DNA from: Patescibacteria group bacterium
Lineage (GTDB): Bacteria; Patescibacteriota; Minisyncoccia; UBA6257; HR35
Direction of reading: 5' to 3'
DNA length: 32,000 bases
Assembly (NCBI GenBank): GCA_023480925.1
Contig: JAMCWY010000003.1
Coordinates: 13,104 to 45,103, forward strand
Position numbers and translations under genes: made by a program
In this document: positions 10,595 through 24,171 of the stretch, piece after piece
How positions within the stretch are numbered: the first letter of the stretch is position 1
How the letters are laid out: the number at the start of each line of letters is the position of its first letter
The notes under the pieces: model-generated
Databases searched by the model: none
What the model was told of the DNA's origin: nothing
Seen by the model: the letters and a program-made list of their open reading frames with translations, nothing else

Positions 10595-11299
10595 ATGGCA
10601 GTGGAGTTTAAACCGGATATCATTTTAACAATTTTTAACTGGCCGATTTCAAATTCGTTGTTGGCGAGTTTTTTGTCGCTTGGTTTGATTTTCCTGACAT
10701 TGTTTATTTTTAAAAAAAGATTAAAAGAAGTGCCAGGTCGATTTCAGGCGGCGATTGAAATTATTTACGAAGGTTTTTTTGATTTTTACAACGATATTCT
10801 CGAATCAAGCAAACAAACAAAAGTTTTCTTTTCTTTTTTGTTCGCTTTTTTCCTTTACGTCATTGTAAGCAACTGGATTGGTCTGTTGCCCGGCATTGGC
10901 AGTCTGGTTGTTCATTGGGGCGGTCAGACCGTGCCGCTTTTTCGTTCGACTTATTCGGATTTGAATATGACCCTTGCCTTAGCTTTGATTTCCGTTATCG
11001 GCGTCAATATAATCGCTATTTTTTATCTGCGCCGCTTTTATTTCAAAAAGTGGTTGACAGCATTGGCGCCGTTTGAAATTTTTTCGGAATTTGCTAAAAT
11101 AATATCTTTCTCGTTCAGATTATTCGGGAATATTTTTGCTGGCGATGTTCTTTTAATCGTAATTTTTTCGTTGAGCGGCTATATTTTACCGGTGCCGTTT
11201 ATAGGTTTGGAAATTTTTGTCGGTTTTATCCAGGCTTTAATTTTTACCGCCTTAACCGCAATTTTCTTAAAAGTCGCATTAATTCAAACATCGCATTAA
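10595..11299 (+). CDS. atpB: F0F1 ATP synthase subunit a.
   Basis: It is a polytopic membrane protein with the conserved Arg region SFSFRLFGNIFAG, and is the first gene of the atp cluster. Confidence 0.9.
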   Translation: MAVEFKPDIILTIFNWPISNSLLASFLSLGLIFLTLFIFKKRLKEVPGRFQAAIEIIYEGFFDFYNDILESSKQTKVFFSFLFAFFLYVIVSNWIGLLPGIGSLVVHWGGQTVPLFRSTYSDLNMTLALALISVIGVNIIAIFYLRRFYFKKWLTALAPFEIFSEFAKIISFSFRLFGNIFAGDVLLIVIFSLSGYILPVPFIGLEIFVGFIQALIFTALTAIFLKVALIQTSH

Positions 11300-11302
11300 T
11301 CA

Positions 11303-11545
11303 ATGCCGCAATCTTTGGATTTAAGTTTTCTTAATAATCTTTTTGCCGGTTTGACGATCGCGATCGGCGTCGCTTTGCCCGCTTGGGCGATTGGCAAGAT
11401 TGGCAGCTCAGCCGTCGAAGGCATCAGCCGTAATCCCGAAGCGACGCCAAAAATCCAAACGGCGATGATCTTAGCTATCGCTTTCGCCGAGGCTGTCGCT
11501 ATTTATGTTTTGGTTATCACCCTTTTGATTAAATTCGTCAAATAA
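11303..11545 (+). CDS. atpE: F0F1 ATP synthase subunit c.
   Basis: It is an 80-aa helical hairpin with the loop RNPE and the carboxylate in AFAEAVAIY. Confidence 0.9.
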   Translation: MPQSLDLSFLNNLFAGLTIAIGVALPAWAIGKIGSSAVEGISRNPEATPKIQTAMILAIAFAEAVAIYVLVITLLIKFVK

Positions 11546-11603
11546 GACCGAAAAGTTAAAAATAAATTATCAAAAGTAATCGTTTCAGTTAAAAATTAAT
11601 TTA

Positions 11604-12107
11604 ATGGATTTGCTAACGAAAATCGGGATTGAACCGAAATTACTACTGGCTCAAGTTGTCAATTTTGGCATCGTTGTTTTTATCATTTATTATTTTTTGC
11701 ATAAACCTTTGTCTAATTTGATTAAGACGAGGCGGGAAAAAATCGAATCGGGTCTGAAAAAAGAAAAAGAAGCGGAAGAGCTGATGGCGAAAGTTCAATC
11801 TTTGCGTCAGGATATTTTGACCGCGGCGGCAAAGGAAAAAGAAGAAATAATTTTGGCGACAAGGGCAAAGTTGGTTGAACTTGAAGAGGCCGAGCGCGAA
11901 AAATTGGTCCGATTCGAGTTGAACGAGAGAAAAAAAATCGAGGCGGCTTTGGCTCAGACGGAAAAAGAATTAGCTAAAGAAATCGAGGCTAAATTTCCGG
12001 CTTTATTTTTAAATTTAAGCTCGAAAATTTTTCCGGCGAAAGATTTGAACGAAAAATTTATTAAAGCGATGCTTGAACAAACTGAGCCGAACGGTCAAAA
12101 CGAATAA
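11604..12107 (+). CDS. atpF: F0F1 ATP synthase subunit b.
   Basis: It has a single N-terminal TM helix and then a long charged helix. Its position is between atpE and atpH. Confidence 0.8.
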   Translation: MDLLTKIGIEPKLLLAQVVNFGIVVFIIYYFLHKPLSNLIKTRREKIESGLKKEKEAEELMAKVQSLRQDILTAAAKEKEEIILATRAKLVELEEAEREKLVRFELNERKKIEAALAQTEKELAKEIEAKFPALFLNLSSKIFPAKDLNEKFIKAMLEQTEPNGQNE

Positions 12108-12487
12108 TGCCGAATATTTGGACGAAGATTTTGGTTGACAAATTTGAACGAGATAAAGATTTGAAGGTCGTTGATGGTTTGGTTGAGCTTTTAAAACGGC
12201 GTGGCCGGTTGAAACAATTGAAAGAAATTTTGGCTGACTTAAAATTCATTCAGGACCAAACCGACCGCGTTGGTTCAGCTAAATTAGTCTTAGCTCAACC
12301 AATTGAAGAAAAGACGTTGGCTTTGATAAAAACGAAGTTGGCGCGGCGGTTGGGTTGGTGCGATCTCAATCCAAGAATTAGAGTTGATAAGAATCTTGTC
12401 GCCGGCGGTTTCTTATTGACTCGGGCCAAGTTTGTCGATTTTAGTTTTCGCGGTTTAATTTTGAGAGGTTTAGTTAAAGAGCAGTGA
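12107..12487 (+). CDS. atpH: F0F1 ATP synthase subunit delta (short, 126 aa).
   Basis: It has a TAATG overlap with atpF. The C-terminal pattern D.NLVAGGFLL....FVDFSF..L matches the delta/OSCP C-terminus. Its position is before atpA. Confidence 0.7.
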   Translation: MPNIWTKILVDKFERDKDLKVVDGLVELLKRRGRLKQLKEILADLKFIQDQTDRVGSAKLVLAQPIEEKTLALIKTKLARRLGWCDLNPRIRVDKNLVAGGFLLTRAKFVDFSFRGLILRGLVKEQ

Positions 12488-12494
12488 TAAAAAA

Positions 12495-14039
12495 ATGGAA
12501 GATTTAAAATTTTTGATTCAAAAACTTGAAAAAGAATTATTGAGAATCGAGGCCGGCGCTGAGATAGTATCGGTCGGGACGGTTTTGCGGACAGGCGACG
12601 GCGTTGTTTGGATTGATGGTTTGGCCCAGACGAAACTAAACGAGATTCTTCTGGTTCGGCCAAGCCAGACGAGTGGAACGAAAGAAATCAGCGTGCCCGT
12701 TTTGGCTTTGAATTTGGAAGAAGAGTTGATCGGCGCGGTTGCCTTGGCTGATTCCGATCTGATTAAAGAAGGCGATATGGTCATAAGGACGGAAACGGTT
12801 ATCCAGGCGCCGGTTGGCCCGTCTTTAATCGGCCGAGTCGTCAATCCTTTGGGTCAGCCGCTTGATGGCTTGGGCGAAATTAAAACCGAAACATTCTATC
12901 CCCTAGAACGAGAAGCGCCGGGCGTGATTGAGCGGGAGCCAGTGCGAAGACCGCTTCAAACCGGAATCAAGGCGATTGATGGATTGATTCCGATTGGCCG
13001 GGGTCAGCGAGAGTTAATTTTGGGCGATCGTCAAATTGGCAAGACCGCGATCGCTTTAGATGTAATTTTGAATCAAAAAGACGAAAAGAAAGATCGGCCG
13101 ATTTGCGTTTATGTCGGCGTTGGCCAAAAACTTTCGAAGATTAAGCGAATGTATGAAATTTTAAAAAAGGCCGGCGCGCTTGACTATACTATCATGGTCG
13201 TGGCGAGCGCTTCCGATCCAGCCGCCTTGATTTATCTTTCCGTTTACAGCGGTTGTTCGATTGGAGAATATTTTCGGGATAACGGTCAGGACGCGGTTGT
13301 GATTTACGACGATTTGACTAAGCACGCTTGGGCTTGGCGGGAATTGAGTTTGCTTTTAAAACGACCGGTTGGCCGCGAGGCTTATCCGGGCGATATTTTT
13401 TACACGCACGCGCGCTTATTGGAACGAGCGGCGAAATTGAAAGAAGGCGGATCGTTGACCGCCTTGCCGATTTGCGAAACTCAACTCGGCGATATTTCTT
13501 CTTATATTCCAACAAATTTAATTTCAATCACCGATGGTCAAATTTATCTTGAGACCGATTTATTCAATAAAGGCTTTCGGCCGGCGATCAGTATCGGTTT
13601 GAGCGTTTCGCGCGTCGGTTCACAGGCTCAGACCAAGTTAATGAAAAAAGTCGCTGGCCGATTGAAGCTTGATCTGGCTCAATTTCGCGAATTGGAAGCG
13701 TTCGCTCAGGTCACGAGTGATTTGGCCGAGGCGAGCAGGAAAAAATTGGAACGAGGTCGAGTTTTGACCGAAATTTTAAAACAAGAGAATCTTCAACCGC
13801 TTAGTTTTGAAAAAATTGCGGTTTTGTTTTTCGCCGCGAACGAGGGTTATCTTGACGGGTTCAGCTCGGCCGAAATTTTTTATTTCGAGAATAAACTTTT
13901 GGCGGATTTAAATTTGGACCAGGCGGATTTGGCCACGGCCTTAAAAACCAAAGCGGATATTGACGATACTTTGGTTGAAAAATTAAATCAGTATTTAAAA
14001 AATTTTGTCCAATCTTTTCGCCAGAACCGGAGTAATTAA
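12495..14039 (+). CDS. atpA: F0F1 ATP synthase subunit alpha.
   Basis: It has the Walker A motif GDRQIGKT and the pattern ITDGQIYLETDLFNKGFRPAI. Confidence 0.97.
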   Translation: MEDLKFLIQKLEKELLRIEAGAEIVSVGTVLRTGDGVVWIDGLAQTKLNEILLVRPSQTSGTKEISVPVLALNLEEELIGAVALADSDLIKEGDMVIRTETVIQAPVGPSLIGRVVNPLGQPLDGLGEIKTETFYPLEREAPGVIEREPVRRPLQTGIKAIDGLIPIGRGQRELILGDRQIGKTAIALDVILNQKDEKKDRPICVYVGVGQKLSKIKRMYEILKKAGALDYTIMVVASASDPAALIYLSVYSGCSIGEYFRDNGQDAVVIYDDLTKHAWAWRELSLLLKRPVGREAYPGDIFYTHARLLERAAKLKEGGSLTALPICETQLGDISSYIPTNLISITDGQIYLETDLFNKGFRPAISIGLSVSRVGSQAQTKLMKKVAGRLKLDLAQFRELEAFAQVTSDLAEASRKKLERGRVLTEILKQENLQPLSFEKIAVLFFAANEGYLDGFSSAEIFYFENKLLADLNLDQADLATALKTKADIDDTLVEKLNQYLKNFVQSFRQNRSN

Positions 14040-14050
14040 ATTTAACTAAA

Positions 14051-14380
14051 ATGAATTTTAAACAGTATCAAGAAAAATCTCGTCGGACCGCGATTTATCC
14101 CCGTCGCGGCAAAGATTTTATTTATCCGGCTCTCGGTTTGGGCGGCGAGACGGGCGAGGTTTTGGATAAGATTAAAAAAATCATCCGAGACAAAAATTAC
14201 AAAGTTGATCAGTTGGTTCGATCGGAATTAGAAAAAGAACTGGGCGATGTTTTGTGGTATCTGGCTCAATTGGCGACGGAATTAAAATTATCTCTTGACC
14301 AAATCGCGAAAACAAATTTAAAAAAATTAAATTCACGTTTAAAGCGAGATCAAATCAAGGGCAGCGGCGATAATCGTTAA
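14051..14380 (+). CDS. MazG-like nucleoside triphosphate pyrophosphohydrolase (small all-alpha type).
   Basis: It is 109 aa long and carries metal-binding motifs GGETGEVLDKIKK and ELGDVLWYLAQLA. It starts 11 nt after atpA and ends 4 nt before atpG. Confidence 0.75.
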   Translation: MNFKQYQEKSRRTAIYPRRGKDFIYPALGLGGETGEVLDKIKKIIRDKNYKVDQLVRSELEKELGDVLWYLAQLATELKLSLDQIAKTNLKKLNSRLKRDQIKGSGDNR

Positions 14381-14384
14381 GGCG

Positions 14385-15341
14385 ATGAAACAAACATCTT
14401 CGCGGAGTTTAAAAAGAAAGATTAAATCTTTGGCGAGTTTTCAAAAGATGACCCGGTCGATTAGTTTGACGGCGGCGGTCAAACTTCGTCGGGTTCAAAT
14501 GAAAATGTTAAAAGCGAGATTTCTTGGTTATGAGCTTTTGCTTTTTCTCAAAGAACTTTTAAAAAGAAACAACAACTTGCCTAACCATTATCTATTTAAT
14601 CAAGCCGCCGCCGGTCGAGCTGATTTGGCTAAAAAGATTTTAGTGATTGTGATTGCCTCGGATCGAGGTTTGGCCGGATCGTTTGATTTGAATATTTTCC
14701 GCCAAGCTGAATCGATAATCGCTGATTTAGACAAGAGTCAGTTTGATCTCGGTTTAATCGGCCGAAAGGCGAAAAATCATTTTAAAAAAAGAGGTTTTGA
14801 ACCAATTTTTGCTTTTGAACATTTTGAGAACGTTATAACTAAAAGCGACATAACCGAATTGATCGAGTTTCTTAAAAGGGCTTTGATCAAAAATATTTAT
14901 AGCCGGGTCGCGGTTATTTATAATAATTTTTATTCAGTCTTAAAACAAAAGGTTGAGGTTGTTGATCTTTATCCTTTTAGTTTTGAAACATTTGATCGTC
15001 AGCTTGAAAATATTATTCCTCGCCAAGGAATGTTTTCCGATCAGACCAAGGTTAAGCCGGCCGTTGGACGGTTTGAATATTTGATCGAACCCAGTCCGGA
15101 AAAAGTTTTGCCGACAGTTTTGGAATTAGCCTTTAGTTATTTAATCTATCTGATTATTTTGGAGGCGAACTCGGCCGAACAAGCCGCTCGTTTGATCACG
15201 ATGCAGCGGGCTTTTGAGAACGCGAGTGAAATGATGTTTGAGACGAAGTTAGTTTATAACAAATTGAGACAAGGTCAAATTACGCGGGAGCTTTTGGAGA
15301 TCATTTCCGGCTCGAGTCAGTTAATTAACGATTTAGTTTGA
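14385..15341 (+). CDS. atpG: F0F1 ATP synthase subunit gamma.
   Basis: The N-terminal (RKIKSLASFQKMTRSISLTAAVKLRR) and C-terminal (LVYNKLRQGQITRELLEIISG) coiled-coil helices are typical of gamma. Confidence 0.9.
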   Translation: MKQTSSRSLKRKIKSLASFQKMTRSISLTAAVKLRRVQMKMLKARFLGYELLLFLKELLKRNNNLPNHYLFNQAAAGRADLAKKILVIVIASDRGLAGSFDLNIFRQAESIIADLDKSQFDLGLIGRKAKNHFKKRGFEPIFAFEHFENVITKSDITELIEFLKRALIKNIYSRVAVIYNNFYSVLKQKVEVVDLYPFSFETFDRQLENIIPRQGMFSDQTKVKPAVGRFEYLIEPSPEKVLPTVLELAFSYLIYLIILEANSAEQAARLITMQRAFENASEMMFETKLVYNKLRQGQITRELLEIISGSSQLINDLV

Positions 15342-15361: not shown

Positions 15362-16804
<1,443 letters not shown>

Positions 16805-16862: not shown

Positions 16863-16888
16863 GCGAATTTTAAATTCGCGGATTTTTG
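16863..16888. terminator. Hairpin terminator between convergent atpD and rel.
   Basis: The palindrome GCGAATTTtAAATTCGC (16863-16879) is followed by GGATTTTT. Confidence 0.5.
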
Positions 16889-16895
16889 GAAATAA

Positions 16896-18635
16896 TTAAA
16901 TCAATCGGTAACTAATTTCTTTGATGACTTTGATATTTTTTAGTTTGATCAAAATTTTTTCCGTTTTTTCTTTATTATCGAAATTGATCTTAATTTTTAT
17001 TTGGGCGAAATGACCGTTTGGGTTTGAGTGGATTTCTTTGATGTTGGTTTTGGTTTGGGCGATGATGTCGGAAATGTTTTTAATCAAGTTAATTTTGTCT
17101 TCGGCCAGGATTTTTATCTCAGCCAGCCGTTCGCGTTTGAATGGATCGTCTTGGCGAAGCTTGTTTCTGATTTTCTTTTTAGCTCGGTCGGTTTTGATAA
17201 AACGAATCCAGGATTCCGATGGCCGCCGCGTTTTTTGAGTCAAAATTTCAACAATATCGCCGGATTGGAGAATTTGATCGAGATTGACGATTTTGTCGTT
17301 GACCCGGGCGCCGACGCAGTGGTTGCCGATTTCGGTGTGAACGGCGTAAGCGAAATCGATTGGCGTTGACCCAGCCGGCAGATCGAAAACTTCGCCCTTG
17401 GGCGTGATCGTAAAAATTCTGTCTTTAAAAAAATCAATTTTAAGCGATTGGAGAAAATCATCTTGGCTGTCAAATTTATTTTGCCAATTTTTCAATTGTT
17501 CAATCCAATTTAACTCTTTCCGGTCGGCAAAAATCGTTTTGGCTTTTAAATAATTTTTGCTTTGTTTCGCTTGGCTATAAAACCAGTAAGCGGCAATACC
17601 GTTTTCATTTTCTTCGTGCATCTCGAGCGTTCGAATTTGAAATTCGGTTGGTTTGTTTTCTTCGCAGATGACGGTCGTGTGAATGCTGCGATAGCCGTTT
17701 GGTTTGGGCAGGGCGATGTAGTCTTTAATCCGGCCGGGCAGAGGCGGCCAAAGTTTGTGGATAAAACCAAGAACGGCATAACACTCTTCGACTGTCTGAA
17801 CGATAATTCGAACCGCGACTAAATCGTAAACTTGGCTAAGGTCCATATCGTAACGGAGAATTTTTTTGTAAAGACTGGCGTAACGTTTGGCTCGAGTATC
17901 GATTCGGATTGGTTTGATTTTATTCTTTTCCAATTCCGTCCCGATTATCTTTTTGACATTTTCAAGGTATCTTTCTCGTTCTTGAAATTTTTCTTTGACA
18001 TTTTCTTTCAACCATTTGGACTCGGTTGGGTGAAGATAGGGGAAGGCGAGATCGTCGAGTTCGCCGGCCAGGTTACTCATACCCAGACGGTAGGCGAGAG
18101 GCGAATAAATTTCGTTTGTTTCAAGAGCGATTCGTTTTTGTTTGTTTGGCGCCAGAGCATTGAGGGTTTTGAGATTGTGGAGCCGGTCGGCCAGCTTAAT
18201 GAAGACGACGCGAATGTCTTCGCTCATGGCCAAAATCATTTTTTTTAAAGTTTCGATCTGAGCTTGGTTGCCGCGGTATTTGATTCGGCTGATCTTAGTC
18301 ACGCCATCGACAAGAAAAGCGATCTCATCGCCGAATTCTTTTTTAATCCGTTCCAAAGAAATGTCGGTGTCTTCGACGACGTCGTGTAAGAGCGCGGCGG
18401 CGGCAGTGGCCAAGTCTAACTGCCACTGGCTAATCTTTAAAGCGGTCTGGAAGGCGTGGTTGAAATAAGGTTCGCCCGATTTTCTTTTTTGGCCACGGTG
18501 GGCTTCTTGGCTGAAGGTGAAAGCTTTTTTAATTAATTCCAATTCCGTTTCATTTAATTGGCAATATTTCTTGATCGCGCCAATCAATTCTTGAAACTGG
18601 TTTGAATTTATTTTTCCATCTATTTTGGCCGTCAT
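16896..18635 (-). CDS. Bifunctional RelA/SpoT-family (p)ppGpp synthetase/hydrolase, compact form of 579 aa.
   Basis: It has an HD hydrolase domain (HRGQKRKSGEPYFNH...LLHDVVEDT), a synthetase core (YDLVAVRIIV, GYRSIHTTV, EFQIRTLEMH), a TGS domain (ITPKGEVFDLPAGSTPIDFAYAVHTEIG) and an ACT-like tail. Confidence 0.9.
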   Translation of the reverse strand: MTAKIDGKINSNQFQELIGAIKKYCQLNETELELIKKAFTFSQEAHRGQKRKSGEPYFNHAFQTALKISQWQLDLATAAAALLHDVVEDTDISLERIKKEFGDEIAFLVDGVTKISRIKYRGNQAQIETLKKMILAMSEDIRVVFIKLADRLHNLKTLNALAPNKQKRIALETNEIYSPLAYRLGMSNLAGELDDLAFPYLHPTESKWLKENVKEKFQERERYLENVKKIIGTELEKNKIKPIRIDTRAKRYASLYKKILRYDMDLSQVYDLVAVRIIVQTVEECYAVLGFIHKLWPPLPGRIKDYIALPKPNGYRSIHTTVICEENKPTEFQIRTLEMHEENENGIAAYWFYSQAKQSKNYLKAKTIFADRKELNWIEQLKNWQNKFDSQDDFLQSLKIDFFKDRIFTITPKGEVFDLPAGSTPIDFAYAVHTEIGNHCVGARVNDKIVNLDQILQSGDIVEILTQKTRRPSESWIRFIKTDRAKKKIRNKLRQDDPFKRERLAEIKILAEDKINLIKNISDIIAQTKTNIKEIHSNPNGHFAQIKIKINFDNKEKTEKILIKLKNIKVIKEISYRLI

Positions 18636-20282: not shown

Positions 20283-20330
20283 AAAAACAGAACTCAACGT
20301 CTTTTTTAAAGCCGTTGAGTTCTGTTTTTG
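20283..20330 (+). terminator. Strong intrinsic terminator after tRNA-Lys.
   Basis: AAAAACAGAACTCAACG (20283-20299) pairs perfectly with CGTTGAGTTCTGTTTTT (20313-20329), followed by a T-run. Confidence 0.85.
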
Positions 20331-20375
20331 TGTATTTATTGTACTAAATTAGAACCTATTCTCAAAATCGGTGAA

Positions 20376-20800
20376 TGAATCAGCTCCACCACCGCTTCGC
20401 TCCGCTCGGCAACCTCGAAAGAAAAACACCCTTTCCTTTTTCATAAAAAATCGGGCGCGCGCAAATCAGAAATACAACAAGGAGTGTTTTTCTTTCGGGG
20501 GGGTCTGCCCTCTAAGTATTCGGGCAGTGCGACGGGGCTACAATGCGGGCGAGGCAAAGCAAAACTATTTTTGCGGGAGGAATACTCTTGGCGGAATTTA
20601 AAATGTCTTGGCGGGACTTGGCGGAAACGGGAACCCGAGCCAGCACAAAAGGCGTGGGCGAAGTCAATCTTTCTTCGAATTCAGAATTGTTGTCATTATG
20701 CCAAAAAGTTTGGACTTATTTCCAGTAGAATCCCAACTGATGCGCCACGCACGGAACGGAGCGCGCGGGGGAGAGGTTTGGGGAGGAATCCGTGCGGTCT
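20376..20800 (+). ncRNA. Candidate structured non-coding RNA or regulatory island of unknown family.
   Basis: My hand count of 20401-20820 gives about 50% G+C, with G in excess on the + strand. There is no credible ORF. Long-range complementary segments include a 17-bp helix between 20413-20429 and 20484-20500. The strand is assigned only from one G-U pair. See findings. Confidence 0.3.
20587..20624 (+). repeat. Three direct copies of CTTGGCGG with helical phasing.
   Basis: Copies lie at 20587-20594, 20607-20614 and 20617-20624. Start-to-start spacing is 20 nt and 10 nt. Confidence 0.8.
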
Positions 20801-20830
20801 TTCTGTTGGATTTTTTCAGTGGGGAGGGAG

Positions 20831-20839
20831 TGGTATAAT
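20831..20839 (+). promoter_or_regulatory. Extended -10 promoter element (TGgTATAAT) for the surface-protein operon.
   Basis: TG lies at 20831-20832 and TATAAT at 20834-20839, preceded by a T-run at 20811-20816. The first ATG downstream is at 20853. Confidence 0.5.
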
Positions 20840-20852
20840 GCTTGTATAAGAT

Positions 20853-20912
20853 ATGTATCTAAACTTTAGCCAAAACCAAGCGCGACACAAGAGAGAGAGA
20901 GAGAGAGAGTAA
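20853..20912 (+). CDS. A 19-codon ATG-initiated leader ORF that contains the (AG)10 tract. It is probably the out-of-frame 5' end of the downstream surface-protein gene.
   Basis: From ATG 20853 it encodes MYLNFSQNQARHKRERERE and stops at TAA 20910-20912. Removing 2 nt in the AG tract fuses it in frame to the ORF that is open from 20870 through 23704. Confidence 0.4.
   Translation: MYLNFSQNQARHKRERERE
20890..20909 (+). repeat. Perfect (AG)10 dinucleotide microsatellite.
   Basis: Read directly from the sequence as aGAGAGAGAGAGAGAGAGAGt. Confidence 0.95.
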
Positions 20913-20959
20913 AACGAGCCCGCAGGGTTTGCTTTAACGCCAAGCAATCTTTTGAGCTA

Positions 20960-23704
20960 TTGGTCATAGCCAGTTTTCTTTTGTTTCTTTCTTCTCTTTT
21001 ACCGCAAAAGGCGCAGGCTGCTAACTCGTGGCTTGGGAACTGGCAATATCGCGAACAAATTACTTTTAACAATTCTTCTTCAACCGAGAATTTGGTTAAT
21101 TTTCCGGTACTGGTCAAACTTGATTCAACCAGAATCAATTACGCCAATACTCAAAACGCGGGCCAAGACATCAGATTTACCGACTCTGACGGAACAACAC
21201 TTTTACCTTATGAAATAGAAAAATGGGATAGCACAGGTACCTCTACTATCTGGGTCGAAATTCCTCAAATAAATGCTTCTTCAAGCACGGATTATATCTA
21301 TATGTACTATGGCAACACCTCTGCCATAGATGGCCAAAATAAAACTGCGGTGTGGAATTCAAATTATGTCTTGGTTCAGCACTTAGGAGAAACATCCGGT
21401 ACCACAACATTTGATTCAACTGCTAATGCAAATAATGGTACAAAAGTTTCGGCTACCGACCCAAATCCTTCTTCATTGGGACAGATAGACGGGGCTCAAA
21501 GTTTCAATGGAGTAAACGATTTTATAAAAATTGACAACAATGCAAATATTGACAACATTACAGTAATAACTGTTAGCGCATGGGTGAAGACTAACAATAC
21601 AACTAGCCAAGCTATTTGGACATCGTATGGAGCACCACATGGATATCAACTTTGGTTGCAAGCGGGACAGGTAGCTATGTGGAGTGACAGCGGAACGGTA
21701 AATTCAGGTGTTTTTGTGGCTGATGGACAATGGCATTATATAGTCGGAGTTTTCGATGGTACAAATGTGTATATTTATGTTGATGGTACACAAAGAGCTT
21801 CCGGCGCAGGAACAGTCACAGCGAATACCGGAAACAATCAAATTGGAAACCAATGTGTTGGTGCAGGATATACTTCCTGCTCTTTGTACATGAACGGCCT
21901 AATTGATGAGCTTCATATCTCAAACACTGTCCGTTCAGCCGCTTGGATTGCGGCAAGTTATAAATCAGAAACAGATAATTTTAACACTTTTGGCGCTGAA
22001 GAATTAAGGCCAAACTCTCCGCCAAACACACCGATTAATTCTTCGCCTACGAATGGTGCCACTCTCCAATTACTTACTCCGACTTTAACCGCATCGGCGT
22101 TTTCCGATCCGGACGCAAGCGATACTAATGCGGCAAGCAACTGGCAGGTTGACGACAACTCTAATTTTCTTTTCCCGGAATGGACGCGAACCAGCACAAG
22201 CGGCGAAACATCCACCACGGTCAATGCCGCCAACGGTGTTTTTGCCAACAGCTTAGCCGGGAAAAGCGAACTGGCGCATAACACGGTTTATTACTGGCGG
22301 GTGCGCTACCAAGATTCGTCTGGTGCGCTTAATAGCTGGTCGTCATATTCAACTAGTACTACCTTCACCACCAATCTTATACATACGCCGACCAATTCCT
22401 CGCCGGCAAATGGTATAACGATTACTACCTTGACTCCAACGCTTTCCGCCTCGGCTTTTTCCGATGATGAACCAGGGCATACGCAAAGCGCGAGCGAATG
22501 GCAAATTGATAATGATATAAATTTTGCCAGTCCTGAATATGATTCCGGCGCCACATCTAGTCTTACCTCGCTAACAGTTCCTTCCGGAGCACTACTTAAC
22601 GGTTCTCATTATTTCCAGGTTCGATATCAGGATTCCGGAGGCCAATGGTCTTCTTATTCTGCTCCTACCTCGTTTTATATTGACACTGATACCGGAGAAT
22701 ATCTCCTGCAGCCAGTTGGCTGGAATCAAACTTACAATCTCGGCGACACGGCGCGTTTTACTCTTCAAGTGCTTGCGAGAGATGCAAATGGCGGATTTGA
22801 TCCAGTAACTCCGGACAGCATACCAATCTGGCGTTTGCGCTATTGGGACGGCGCCACTTGGCAGGAATTGGTTTCGGCAACTAGTATGACTCCTCTTGCC
22901 GCGTCGAGCACTTATGAAGCGACCTATGTCATCCCCAGCGATGCTGCTTGGACTGGCAGGGAAGTAACGCCGATGTTCTACGCGACCGTAAACGACGTGC
23001 CGACATCATTGACGCGTGAAATTGAAATTGTCAGTTCCCCGGCGCAAGTGGTGATTAATAACATCACTAACAATACTGTTCCTAATATCACCGCTAATAT
23101 TACAATTACAAACGAAGGCACCGCCGCTTTTGAATACACCTACGACTATTGCGTTGTTGTTTCTATTATTGACCAGTGTGGCGGCGCTGGTAACATCGCT
23201 TACAGTTCAGCGGCTAAATTAATCCAGCCGAGTCAAAACTTTATTACCAATCTAACGCTCAATGTGCCAAATCCAGGCAATTATTTTTTTAAAACCTCGG
23301 TTTGGTGGTCAAATAAAAGTTCAAACGCAAGCCGGTCTTTTACGGCGGCCGCGGCGGCTACTTCTAGTCCTTCTTCGAATAGTAGCTCCGTCGGTGGGGG
23401 CGGAGGCGGCGGCGGAACCGTTTGGAGCGGCAATTTGACGGCATCTAGCTCCAGCCAGGTGACTAATTCAGCCGGTTCAACTAATTCGTCTTTTGTCGCC
23501 GTCTGGGAAGCGATCTACACTTTTTCTCAACGTTTAAATAGGCTTGAAAACCGCGTTGATGTTCTTGAAAGCAAGATAAAAAAATTGGAAAATATCAATC
23601 AGTCAAATTATTCTTCGGTTTATCAACCGCAACCAAGTTATGTCCCGTCGTCTCAACCAACTCTGCCCAAGATCAATCATATATTTAGAATTAGACTGAA
23701 TTAG
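20960..23704 (+). CDS. Large secreted surface protein. Its parts are a signal peptide, DUF2341-like and LamG/concanavalin-like domains, two Fn3-like modules, a beta-rich region, a Ser/Ala/Gly linker with a G8 run, and a coiled-coil tail.
   Basis: With TTG 20960 the N-terminus is MVIASFLLFLSSLLPQKAQA/ANSW. The DUF2341-type pattern is WQYREQITFNN...NFPVLVKL...DIRFTD.DGT.LPYEIEKWD...IWVEIP...IYMYYGN. The LamG pattern is DGQWHYIVGVFDG.NVYIYVDG...GLIDELHISN..RSAAWI. The true start may be ATG 20853 after AG-tract slippage. Confidence 0.75.
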   Translation: MVIASFLLFLSSLLPQKAQAANSWLGNWQYREQITFNNSSSTENLVNFPVLVKLDSTRINYANTQNAGQDIRFTDSDGTTLLPYEIEKWDSTGTSTIWVEIPQINASSSTDYIYMYYGNTSAIDGQNKTAVWNSNYVLVQHLGETSGTTTFDSTANANNGTKVSATDPNPSSLGQIDGAQSFNGVNDFIKIDNNANIDNITVITVSAWVKTNNTTSQAIWTSYGAPHGYQLWLQAGQVAMWSDSGTVNSGVFVADGQWHYIVGVFDGTNVYIYVDGTQRASGAGTVTANTGNNQIGNQCVGAGYTSCSLYMNGLIDELHISNTVRSAAWIAASYKSETDNFNTFGAEELRPNSPPNTPINSSPTNGATLQLLTPTLTASAFSDPDASDTNAASNWQVDDNSNFLFPEWTRTSTSGETSTTVNAANGVFANSLAGKSELAHNTVYYWRVRYQDSSGALNSWSSYSTSTTFTTNLIHTPTNSSPANGITITTLTPTLSASAFSDDEPGHTQSASEWQIDNDINFASPEYDSGATSSLTSLTVPSGALLNGSHYFQVRYQDSGGQWSSYSAPTSFYIDTDTGEYLLQPVGWNQTYNLGDTARFTLQVLARDANGGFDPVTPDSIPIWRLRYWDGATWQELVSATSMTPLAASSTYEATYVIPSDAAWTGREVTPMFYATVNDVPTSLTREIEIVSSPAQVVINNITNNTVPNITANITITNEGTAAFEYTYDYCVVVSIIDQCGGAGNIAYSSAAKLIQPSQNFITNLTLNVPNPGNYFFKTSVWWSNKSSNASRSFTAAAAATSSPSSNSSSVGGGGGGGGTVWSGNLTASSSSQVTNSAGSTNSSFVAVWEAIYTFSQRLNRLENRVDVLESKIKKLENINQSNYSSVYQPQPSYVPSSQPTLPKINHIFRIRLN
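22028..22680 (+). repeat. Tandem duplication of an Fn3/Ig-like module inside the surface-protein CDS.
   Basis: Unit 1 starts TPINSSPTNGATLQLLTPTLTASAFSD...YYWRVRYQDSSG..NSWSSYS. Unit 2, starting at 22385, reads TPTNSSPANGITITTLTPTLSASAFSD...HYFQVRYQDSGGQWSSYS. The repeat is diverged at the DNA level. Confidence 0.65.
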
Positions 23705-23706
23705 AG

Positions 23707-24138
23707 ATGAAAAAATTTATCGGTTCAGTTTTTAAACTAAAATTAAACGATGTCGTTATTTTGTTTTTATTGTTTGCGTTGGTTCTAAGTAATTTGATTT
23801 TGACTATTCAGGTTTTTGAAAATTTAAATGAAATTAAATTCATTCAGGCGAACTTGAATCAAGTTAAAAAAAATAACCAGATTTTAGAATTCGATCGGAT
23901 TCGAGTTGAAGACGCGGCCAATATTCTTTTGGCGATTCAGGATTATTACTACTCGAATCAGGCCTTTCCTAATAATCTCGAAGAATTAAAAAAACAAGGC
24001 TACCTTGATTCAAAAGCGGAGTTATCAGATCCTCAAACGCACAAATATTATTTTTATAAAAATCGCGGTAACGATTTTGTCTTTTGCGTTTGGTTGTCCG
24101 ACAAAGTTAAGGGCGTTAACGTCAGCGCTTGTCACTAA
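23707..24138 (+). CDS. Membrane-anchored protein with a type IV pilin/pseudopilin-like globular domain.
   Basis: It has an N-terminal TM helix (VVILFLLFALVLSNLILTI). The following AANILLAIQDYYYSNQAFPNNLEEL...LSDPQTHKYYFYK...FVFCVWL matches the common pilin-fold pattern (YP..L..L....DP....Y.Y). No G/FTLIE prepilin cleavage motif is present. It starts 3 nt after the upstream stop. Confidence 0.5.
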   Translation: MKKFIGSVFKLKLNDVVILFLLFALVLSNLILTIQVFENLNEIKFIQANLNQVKKNNQILEFDRIRVEDAANILLAIQDYYYSNQAFPNNLEELKKQGYLDSKAELSDPQTHKYYFYKNRGNDFVFCVWLSDKVKGVNVSACH

Positions 24139-24171
24139 TTAGACGAGAACCAGATAAGACGTACGCTAATC

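Follow-up and report, generated by a model that had tools for sequence, protein, structure and literature searches.

In the canonical bacterial atp operon, atpIBEFHAGDC, the gene of the gamma subunit directly follows that of the alpha subunit. In the Patescibacteria genome considered here, a small gene for a MazG-like protein is lodged between the two. Does this position reflect a coupling of nucleotide-pool or alarmone housekeeping to ATP synthase, as a preliminary description of the locus had proposed, or did the gene come to lie there by ordinary relocation? We addressed this question in a window of 32,000 nucleotides, by which we mean the whole stretch of DNA that was analysed.

Organisation of the atp locus

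The list of open reading frames (ORFs) and their Pfam matches place the atp genes on the plus strand in the order a (starting at 10595), c, b, delta, alpha, MazG, gamma and beta (ending at 16804), in agreement with the order initially described. The features of the locus are as follows.

10595-12487, plus strand: upstream portion of the same-strand atp string, made of atpB, atpE, atpF and atpH (ORFs)
10595-11299, plus strand: atpB (subunit a), from the ATP-synt_A annotation of the near-identical locus L018
11303-11545, plus strand: atpE (subunit c), from the ATP-synt_C annotation of locus L018
11604-12107, plus strand: atpF (subunit b), from the ATP-synt_B annotation of locus L018
12107-12487, plus strand: atpH (short delta subunit), Pfam OSCP match
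12495-14039, plus strand: atpA (F1 alpha subunit, 514 aa), Pfam ATP-synt_ab (E=1.7e-76) and ATP-synt_ab_C (E=3.2e-35), stop codon TAA
14040-14050, plus strand: spacer between atpA and MazG, 11 nt, atttaactaaa (sequence read)
14051-14380, plus strand: predicted single-domain (d)NTP pyrophosphohydrolase of MazG type, 109 aa, Pfam PF03819
14381-14384, plus strand: spacer between MazG and atpG, 4 nt, ggcg (sequence read)
14385-15341, plus strand: atpG (F1 gamma subunit, 318 aa), Pfam ATP-synt (E=1.4e-62, residues 6-311)
15371-16804, plus strand: atpD (F1 beta subunit, 477 aa), Pfam ATP-synt_ab (E=4e-74)
16863-16879, plus strand: terminator-like hairpin 3' of atpD (consensus scan, pattern match alone)
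16896-18635, opposite strand: rel, between atpD (beta) and atpC (epsilon) (ORFs and Pfam)

The locus resembles the canonical operon in that a-c-b-delta-alpha and gamma-beta run on one strand, but departs from it at two points: atpA is not directly followed by atpG, the two being parted by a 330-nt foreign gene, and beta is parted from epsilon by rel on the opposite strand. The spacers of 11 nt to atpA and 4 nt to atpG, both between genes of the same strand, were read in the sequence exactly as first reported. The MazG ORF begins with MNFKQYQ, which is the start of all its homologues, and the start of atpG at 14385 is correct because the gamma Pfam match opens at residue 6. No Shine-Dalgarno-like motif at normal spacing was found in the 11-nt spacer, the nearest GGAG lying 18 nt upstream of the ATG. 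On the other side, the spacer measures only 4 nt and the ribosome-binding region of atpG therefore lies within the 3' end of the MazG gene.

A consensus scan of the plus strand detected no terminator-like site from 14039 to 14385. The first such site located outside a gene after MazG is the hairpin at 16863-16879, which is likely to be the end of any transcript that would include MazG. The locus had been described as devoid of both terminator and promoter motifs. The first part of this statement stands; the second has to be qualified by one weak promoter-like match (9/12) at 13975-14003, inside the 3' end of atpA, which is indistinguishable from the AT-rich background. Because the gaps measure 11 and 4 nt and hold no terminator-like site, co-transcription of MazG with the atp genes is plausible. 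It had also been concluded that the MazG protein must be roughly co-stoichiometric with the F1 subunits. Co-transcription does not imply this, since the subunits encoded by one atp mRNA are made in unequal amounts. The hairpin sits between the convergent atpD and rel genes; if transcription ends there, then atpC would be transcribed apart from the remaining operon. The rel gene is embedded 2.5 kb downstream of MazG, a NUDIX gene is likewise found at less than 6 kb from it, and the Rel protein carries its own HD hydrolase domain as judged by Pfam.

Identity and fold of the inserted protein

By sequence comparison, the product of 14051-14380 is a bona fide member of the MazG family, of the single-domain type known from phages and as the 'small cyanobacterial' MazG, and not an E. 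coli MazG. MazG (PF03819) was the sole Pfam family found for the 109-residue protein, with 44 bits for a cut-off of 22 (E=2.8e-11, residues 30-97). The phage family phrog_229, 'MazG-like pyrophosphatase', matched it over its full length (residues 1-109, E=1.1e-37, 131 bits). The paired metal motifs, which had been spotted together with the MazG-like character at the outset, are E33-x-x-E36 and E63-x-x-D66, and both are invariant across 32 homologues. The alignment of these homologues comprises 34 invariant columns, all of them intact in the window's MazG, whose C-terminus carries a G-x-G-D-N-R motif (G-x-G-D-x-R being invariant in the alignment). AlphaFold2 predicts a confident four-helix bundle with a pLDDT of 89.5 and helices at residues 3-11, 24-47, 54-77 and 82-98. 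The top Foldseek hits of this model all have the MazG fold, with probabilities up to 1.0. The nearest solved folds, YpjD, DCTPP1/RS21-C6 of mouse and human, 5ie9, iMazG and DR2231, are without exception dNTP pyrophosphatases of a single domain. More than 1,150 homologous proteins were retrieved at 90% clustering; the best 120 listed are nearly all 109 aa long with 60-71% identity, and the named sources among them are mostly Patescibacteria. Database annotation of the orthologues reads 'nucleoside triphosphate pyrophosphohydrolase family protein'.

The models specific to E. coli-type MazG failed, with 22.9 bits versus 208 for the NF007113 equivalog and 17.9 versus 148.3 for TIGR00444. The tandem two-domain architecture of about 260 aa that characterises this type is also absent from the single-domain protein of 109 aa. 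Nor does the protein belong to PF00692, which groups the trimeric dUTPases and dCTP deaminases, so that a dUTPase role proposed for it is one of functional analogy and not of family membership. Membership of a defence system was considered and dropped, none of the anti-phage families of PADLOC matching the protein at E<=0.01.

The arrangement in independent assemblies

A MazG protein 97% identical to that of the window is encoded on five contigs from other metagenome samples. Two of these loci were fetched (Logan assembly SRR33270670 and ENA ERZ27233565). They display an identical gene order, rel between atpD and atpC included, with a nucleotide identity to the window of 97.7% over 14.2 kb. 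A misassembly, a concern raised with the first description of the insertion, is excluded because independent metagenome contigs of a population about 98% identical keep the order with the same junctions. Between the two populations the MazG gene differs by 5 substitutions, 2 synonymous and 3 non-synonymous, which are too few to demonstrate purifying selection from dN/dS.

Further along the window, a segment of about 3.9 kb (20289-24160) has only 67 nt in its place in loci L018 and L019, on the contigs of 97.7% identity. This strain-variable insertion covers the gene of a large secreted surface protein.

Distribution among MazG loci and relatives

A synteny search had been proposed as the check on a coupling of the gene to ATP synthase, and the coupling did not pass it. 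Other loci for this MazG family, about 125 in all, are without atp flanks, be they the 6 MazG loci found among 40 relatives, the 80 loci from GTDB species representatives or the roughly 30 metagenome loci. Of the 41 genomes that were searched for atpG, 20 have the gene, namely the window's own and 19 of the 40 relatives, about half of the relatives being devoid of it. In 17 of the 19 relatives having atpG, atpA lies directly upstream of it with room for no gene. The nearest relative with atpG shows the empty site: the TAA of atpA, a 10-nt spacer, then the ATG-AAA-CAA of atpG. Conserved atpA-MazG-atpG synteny was thus rejected, no second case being found beyond the species among the MazG loci and the atpG loci of the 19 relatives, and the arrangement was found only in one uncultured Patescibacteria species. 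A functional coupling to ATP synthase is unsupported for this reason. In the literature available for searching, nothing relevant was found on genes inserted between atpA and atpG or on this MazG in Patescibacteria.

The MazG gene was detected in 2 of 24 genomes of the window's family, and true orthologues in 10 of 121 genomes of its class; it is therefore accessory and patchily distributed there. Unrelated genes often interrupt the atp operons of the family: the gene of a transporter alongside that of an ATP-cone protein in one case, a P-type ATPase gene or a phosphomutase-like gene in others. In one relative of the same family (locus L027, G020:C1), a 94-aa stand-alone ATP-cone protein (PF03477, E=1.8e-15) is encoded at 2403-2687 on the minus strand, 11 nt upstream of atpG, and together with an MFS-like transporter occupies the place where atpA is expected. 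This is a second case in the family of a small nucleotide-binding gene abutting atpG. Fragmented atp operons were also observed at loci L025 (G013), L026 (G021) and L039 (G028), in which a phosphomutase-like gene or a P-type ATPase replaces atpD after atpG, or small membrane proteins replace atpA.

Usual neighbourhood and origin of the gene

The nearest homologue outside the species (71% identity) lies in the order thyX, P-loop kinase, MazG, tmk, gatB. Other long contigs present dCMP deaminase, kinase, thyX, tmk, MazG, gatB, or else dcd-MazG-ileS with genes adjoining or overlapping. At least one of tmk, thyX, kinase, dCMP deaminase or dcd is found within 1.5 kb in 21 of the 117 loci with a full-length match, and gatB often comes after. 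The most recurrent partners of the orthologues are tmk, thyX, the P-loop kinase, dCMP deaminase, dCTP deaminase and gatB. When the neighbours were clustered without supervision, the largest groups were those of gatB, tmk, the kinase and a DHFR/RibD_C-like protein, and DHFR-like genes recur near the orthologues. Such neighbours suggest a role in pyrimidine deoxynucleotide metabolism: dUTP is the product of dcd, dCMP and dUMP are the substrates of dCMP deaminase and thyX, and tmk with the DHFR-like gene completes the set.

The remaining contexts are heterogeneous. Stand-alone copies adjoin the ribosomal-protein cluster at its rpsI end. At loci L072, L080, L097, L101 and L122, which form a subgroup with the labels Saccharibacteria or Paceibacterota, MazG is embedded among neighbours of three recurring kinds: one encodes a protein whose cysteine motif is Fe-hydrogenase-like, another a multi-pass membrane protein of 165-171 aa without Pfam match, and the third a small membrane protein. 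An ATP-cone-like gene is often found downstream. Tight embedding, defined as at most 40 nt to the neighbour on the same strand, is the rule: of 95 loci, 24 show it on both sides of the gene and 44 on one side. For this MazG gene it is therefore normal to be embedded in a foreign operon.

The GC content of the inserted gene is 39.4% for a genome value of 41.2%, and both its GC and GC3 match those of the neighbouring genes, so that no compositional signature of recent foreign origin was found in it. It is flanked by atpA and atpG themselves, with no mobile-element genes or repeats beside it. From this match in composition and the lack of flanking mobile-element genes, the insertion is not obviously recent foreign DNA. 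A protein tree was built from 119 rows and 109 columns. In this weakly resolved tree, the window's MazG groups (SH-aLRT 85) with stand-alone copies that adjoin rpsI, one from a genome labelled Woesebacteria and one from a metagenome contig; same-family relatives group elsewhere. Naming a donor of the copy was attempted from this tree and given up, the resolution being too poor.

Co-occurrence with dUTPase and thymidylate genes

We searched for dUTPase-type genes in the genomes that encode this MazG. In the sample of 121 genomes of the class, PF00692 was above the cut-off in none of the 10 orthologue-bearing genomes versus 51 of the whole 121, which corresponds to a hypergeometric P of about 0.003 before any correction for kinship. 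In the sample of 41 relatives, it was found in none of the 7 MazG-bearing genomes versus 17 of 41 overall. A group of 17 of these 41 genomes has neither this MazG nor a PF00692 hit; dUTPase-type activity is therefore evidently dispensable or otherwise supplied in many Patescibacteria. Beyond this phylum, five picocyanobacterial genomes of Prochlorococcus, Synechococcus, Cyanobium or Aphanothece (G160-G164, with loci L094, L117, L099, L113 and L120) carry an orthologue. Their only PF00692 match is dcd-like, at about 26 bits, and no trimeric or canonical Dut was found in these five. A review suggests that MazG-like enzymes can substitute in organisms without Dut (PMC5122711).

The genome from which the window comes, 507 kb long and 94% complete, yielded no match to PF00692 (dUTPase/dcd), thyX or dCMP deaminase. 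It has tmk, a ribonucleotide reductase and a weak ThyA-like gene (30 bits). Since dcd and dCMP deaminase are missing from it and the ThyA-like match is weak, the downstream pathway is not secure in this genome. At G000:C5:40500-42660 (locus L044, 59-2214, minus strand), divergent from tmk, the gene of the ThyA-like protein (247 aa, PF00303) stands in a row with two others, one coding for a QueC-like PP-loop protein of 303 aa and one for a CYTH-like protein. Rather than an ordinary thymidylate synthase, this may be a module for the modification of nucleotides or bases.

Comparison with characterised MazG proteins

The closest known systems are the Patescibacteria MazG genes of thymidylate or dcd clusters. 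Their products are orthologous to that of the window, with a length of 109 aa, 60-71% identity among the best 120 of more than 1,150 homologues, identical motifs and a similarly tight gene packing, but they are flanked by nucleotide-metabolism genes where the window's copy is flanked by atpA and atpG. The 'small' MazG of picocyanobacteria is also made of a single MazG domain of similar length, the proteins of Prochlorococcus, Synechococcus and Cyanobium sharing 54-61% identity with that of the window. Phage MazG-like pyrophosphatases, again single-domain and of similar length, reach up to 53% identity (Streptomyces and Roseobacter phages). The family was found in 749 phage records, of which 385 cover at least 80% of the protein. 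Phage copies lie in replication modules, for instance beside DNA polymerase I, whereas the window's copy does not.

More distant relatives have been solved structurally. The nearest by sequence profile are YpjD (2gta, E=1.8e-6), 5ie9 (E=8.4e-6) and iMazG (E=3.6e-4). Bacillus YpjD, the BA1554-type MazG (5ie9) and the integron iMazG (2q5z, 2q73) have in common with the window's protein the EExxE...ExxD four-helix core at about 20-25% identity, but are devoid of the N-terminal F3/Y6/Q7/Y16-P17 residues and of the C-terminal GxGDNR of its family. DCTPP1/RS21-C6 and Deinococcus DR2231 are all-alpha dNTP pyrophosphatases of a single domain with pyrimidine dNTPs as substrates, and DR2231 hydrolyses dUTP. 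With Foldseek probabilities of 0.96-1.0, query-normalised TM-scores of about 0.45-0.72 and 15-29% identity, they are proposed functional analogues, by fold and gene context alone.

E. coli MazG (3cra) has been reported to lower (p)ppGpp, and the alarmone link of the preliminary description was borrowed from it. It belongs to the same superfamily, and its C-terminal domain aligns to residues 34-96 of the window's protein, but it has two domains and 263 aa, and the one-domain protein of the window, which fails the NF007113 model, is not a member of this type. The link is further weakened by cyanophage S-PM2 MazG and by the 'large' Synechococcus MazG, neither of which showed binding or hydrolysis of (p)ppGpp (PMC6850273). 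S-PM2 MazG hydrolysed all the nucleotides tested, mostly at a Km in the millimolar range; its preferred substrates were dGTP and dCTP, and dUTP was handled like other nucleotides (PMC6850273). Its use as a close proxy was rejected: with only 39% identity over 74 residues (24-97), it is a weak proxy that calls for caution. The 'small' host MazG, such as Syn_WH7803_01219, is mentioned as uncharacterised in the same study (PMC6850273).

A probable relocation of a housekeeping gene and the alternatives

Taken as a whole, with a probability of about 0.7, the gene would encode a MazG pyrophosphatase of pyrimidine dNTPs, brought between atpA and atpG by a chance relocation specific to the lineage, carried along on the atp mRNA and tied functionally neither to ATP synthase nor to Rel. 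The protein most likely hydrolyses dUTP and/or dCTP to the monophosphate and pyrophosphate. Uracil would thereby be kept out of DNA and dUMP supplied for thymidylate synthesis in a genome without canonical dUTPase. Such a dUTP/dCTP pyrophosphatase, serving pool sanitation and the feeding of dUMP, is our best reading because of the thymidylate neighbours, the lack of co-occurrence with PF00692 and the substitution by MazG-like enzymes suggested in the review cited above. The preference for pyrimidines or dUTP is deduced from the gene neighbourhood only, since S-PM2 MazG favoured dGTP and dCTP. The gene would have landed in the spacer of about 10 nt between atpA and atpG in an ancestor of this species, and is probably expressed by read-through of the atp transcript; its translation may be coupled to that of atpA. 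Its location would then be accidental, the outcome of gene shuffling in this one lineage with its highly compact genome of 0.5 Mb, and a placement at most tolerated or favoured for steady housekeeping expression. An ordinary relocation, and not an energy-alarmone link, is most likely because the gene elsewhere usually sits with genes of thymidine synthesis.

The opposing view is that the position is functional: MazG would be co-expressed with F1, and nucleotide-pool or (p)ppGpp housekeeping coupled to ATP synthase, possibly with the contribution of Rel. The tight same-strand embedding (11 and 4 nt, no terminator-like site), the presence of rel and of the NUDIX gene within 6 kb and the retention of the order, Rel included, in a second population are all consistent with it, as is one unrelated Patescibacteria lineage with Rel 2.5 kb upstream of dcd-MazG. 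We nevertheless regard this coupling as very improbable, the arrangement having been found in a single species when about 125 loci and 19 atp-bearing relatives were compared, in a family whose atp operons are often broken by unrelated genes. The protein, moreover, has one domain and falls far below the score of the E. coli type (22.9 versus 208 bits), Rel has its own HD hydrolase domain, and the characterised S-PM2 and 'large' Synechococcus enzymes showed no hydrolysis of (p)ppGpp (PMC6850273). An adaptive version, in which a promoter-poor genome of 0.5 Mb has wired a dUTPase-like MazG into the atp transcript, either to make dNTP sanitation follow the energy and growth status or to treat the pool of nucleotides that F1 sees, would likewise be a long shot.

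Mycobacterial MazG is a house-cleaning enzyme and DCTPP1/RS21-C6 acts on 5-modified dCTP. The window's protein could similarly be a broad house-cleaning pyrophosphatase for damaged or non-canonical (oxidised, deaminated or methylated) (d)NTPs, and not a substitute for dUTPase, which we consider unlikely. The structural neighbours include DCTPP1/RS21-C6 and iMazG, S-PM2 MazG accepted every nucleotide tested at millimolar Km, about 70% of the loci have contexts unrelated to thymidylate genes and many relatives have neither Dut nor this MazG. That the gene is repeatedly linked, with overlaps, to dcd, tmk, thyX, dCMP deaminase and DHFR-like genes speaks against it, as do the mutual exclusion of MazG and PF00692 in two samples and the lack of Dut in the picocyanobacteria with MazG. 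The abundance of the family in phages (749 records, up to 53% identity), its patchy occurrence (2 of 24 family genomes, 10 of 121 in the class) and the separate grouping of the same-family copies in the weakly resolved tree could also evoke a recently acquired passenger, phage-derived or mobile and without host function. This is extremely improbable for a gene that has no flanking mobile-element genes or repeats, matches its neighbours in GC and GC3, keeps all 34 family-invariant residues and has its nearest homologues, among the best 120 listed, in cellular Patescibacteria genes of 60-71% identity and not in phages.

Significance

The insertion into the atp operon is itself ordinary. It is one more example of small housekeeping genes being freely reshuffled into unrelated operons in the ultra-compact genomes of Patescibacteria, where tight co-linearity is weak evidence of functional coupling. 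The more useful by-product concerns the family. The 109-aa single-domain MazG is highly conserved and common to many Patescibacteria, to marine and freshwater picocyanobacteria and to hundreds of phages; it travels with thymidylate-synthesis genes, and no canonical dUTPase was found beside it in the samples searched. We give roughly even odds to the proposal that this 'small MazG' is an unrecognised replacement of dUTPase in Patescibacteria and picocyanobacteria devoid of Dut. If it is indeed a dUTPase or dCTPase, a gap would be filled in the reconstructed DNA-precursor metabolism of these lineages, and the uncharacterised 'small MazG' of Prochlorococcus and Synechococcus would receive a function.
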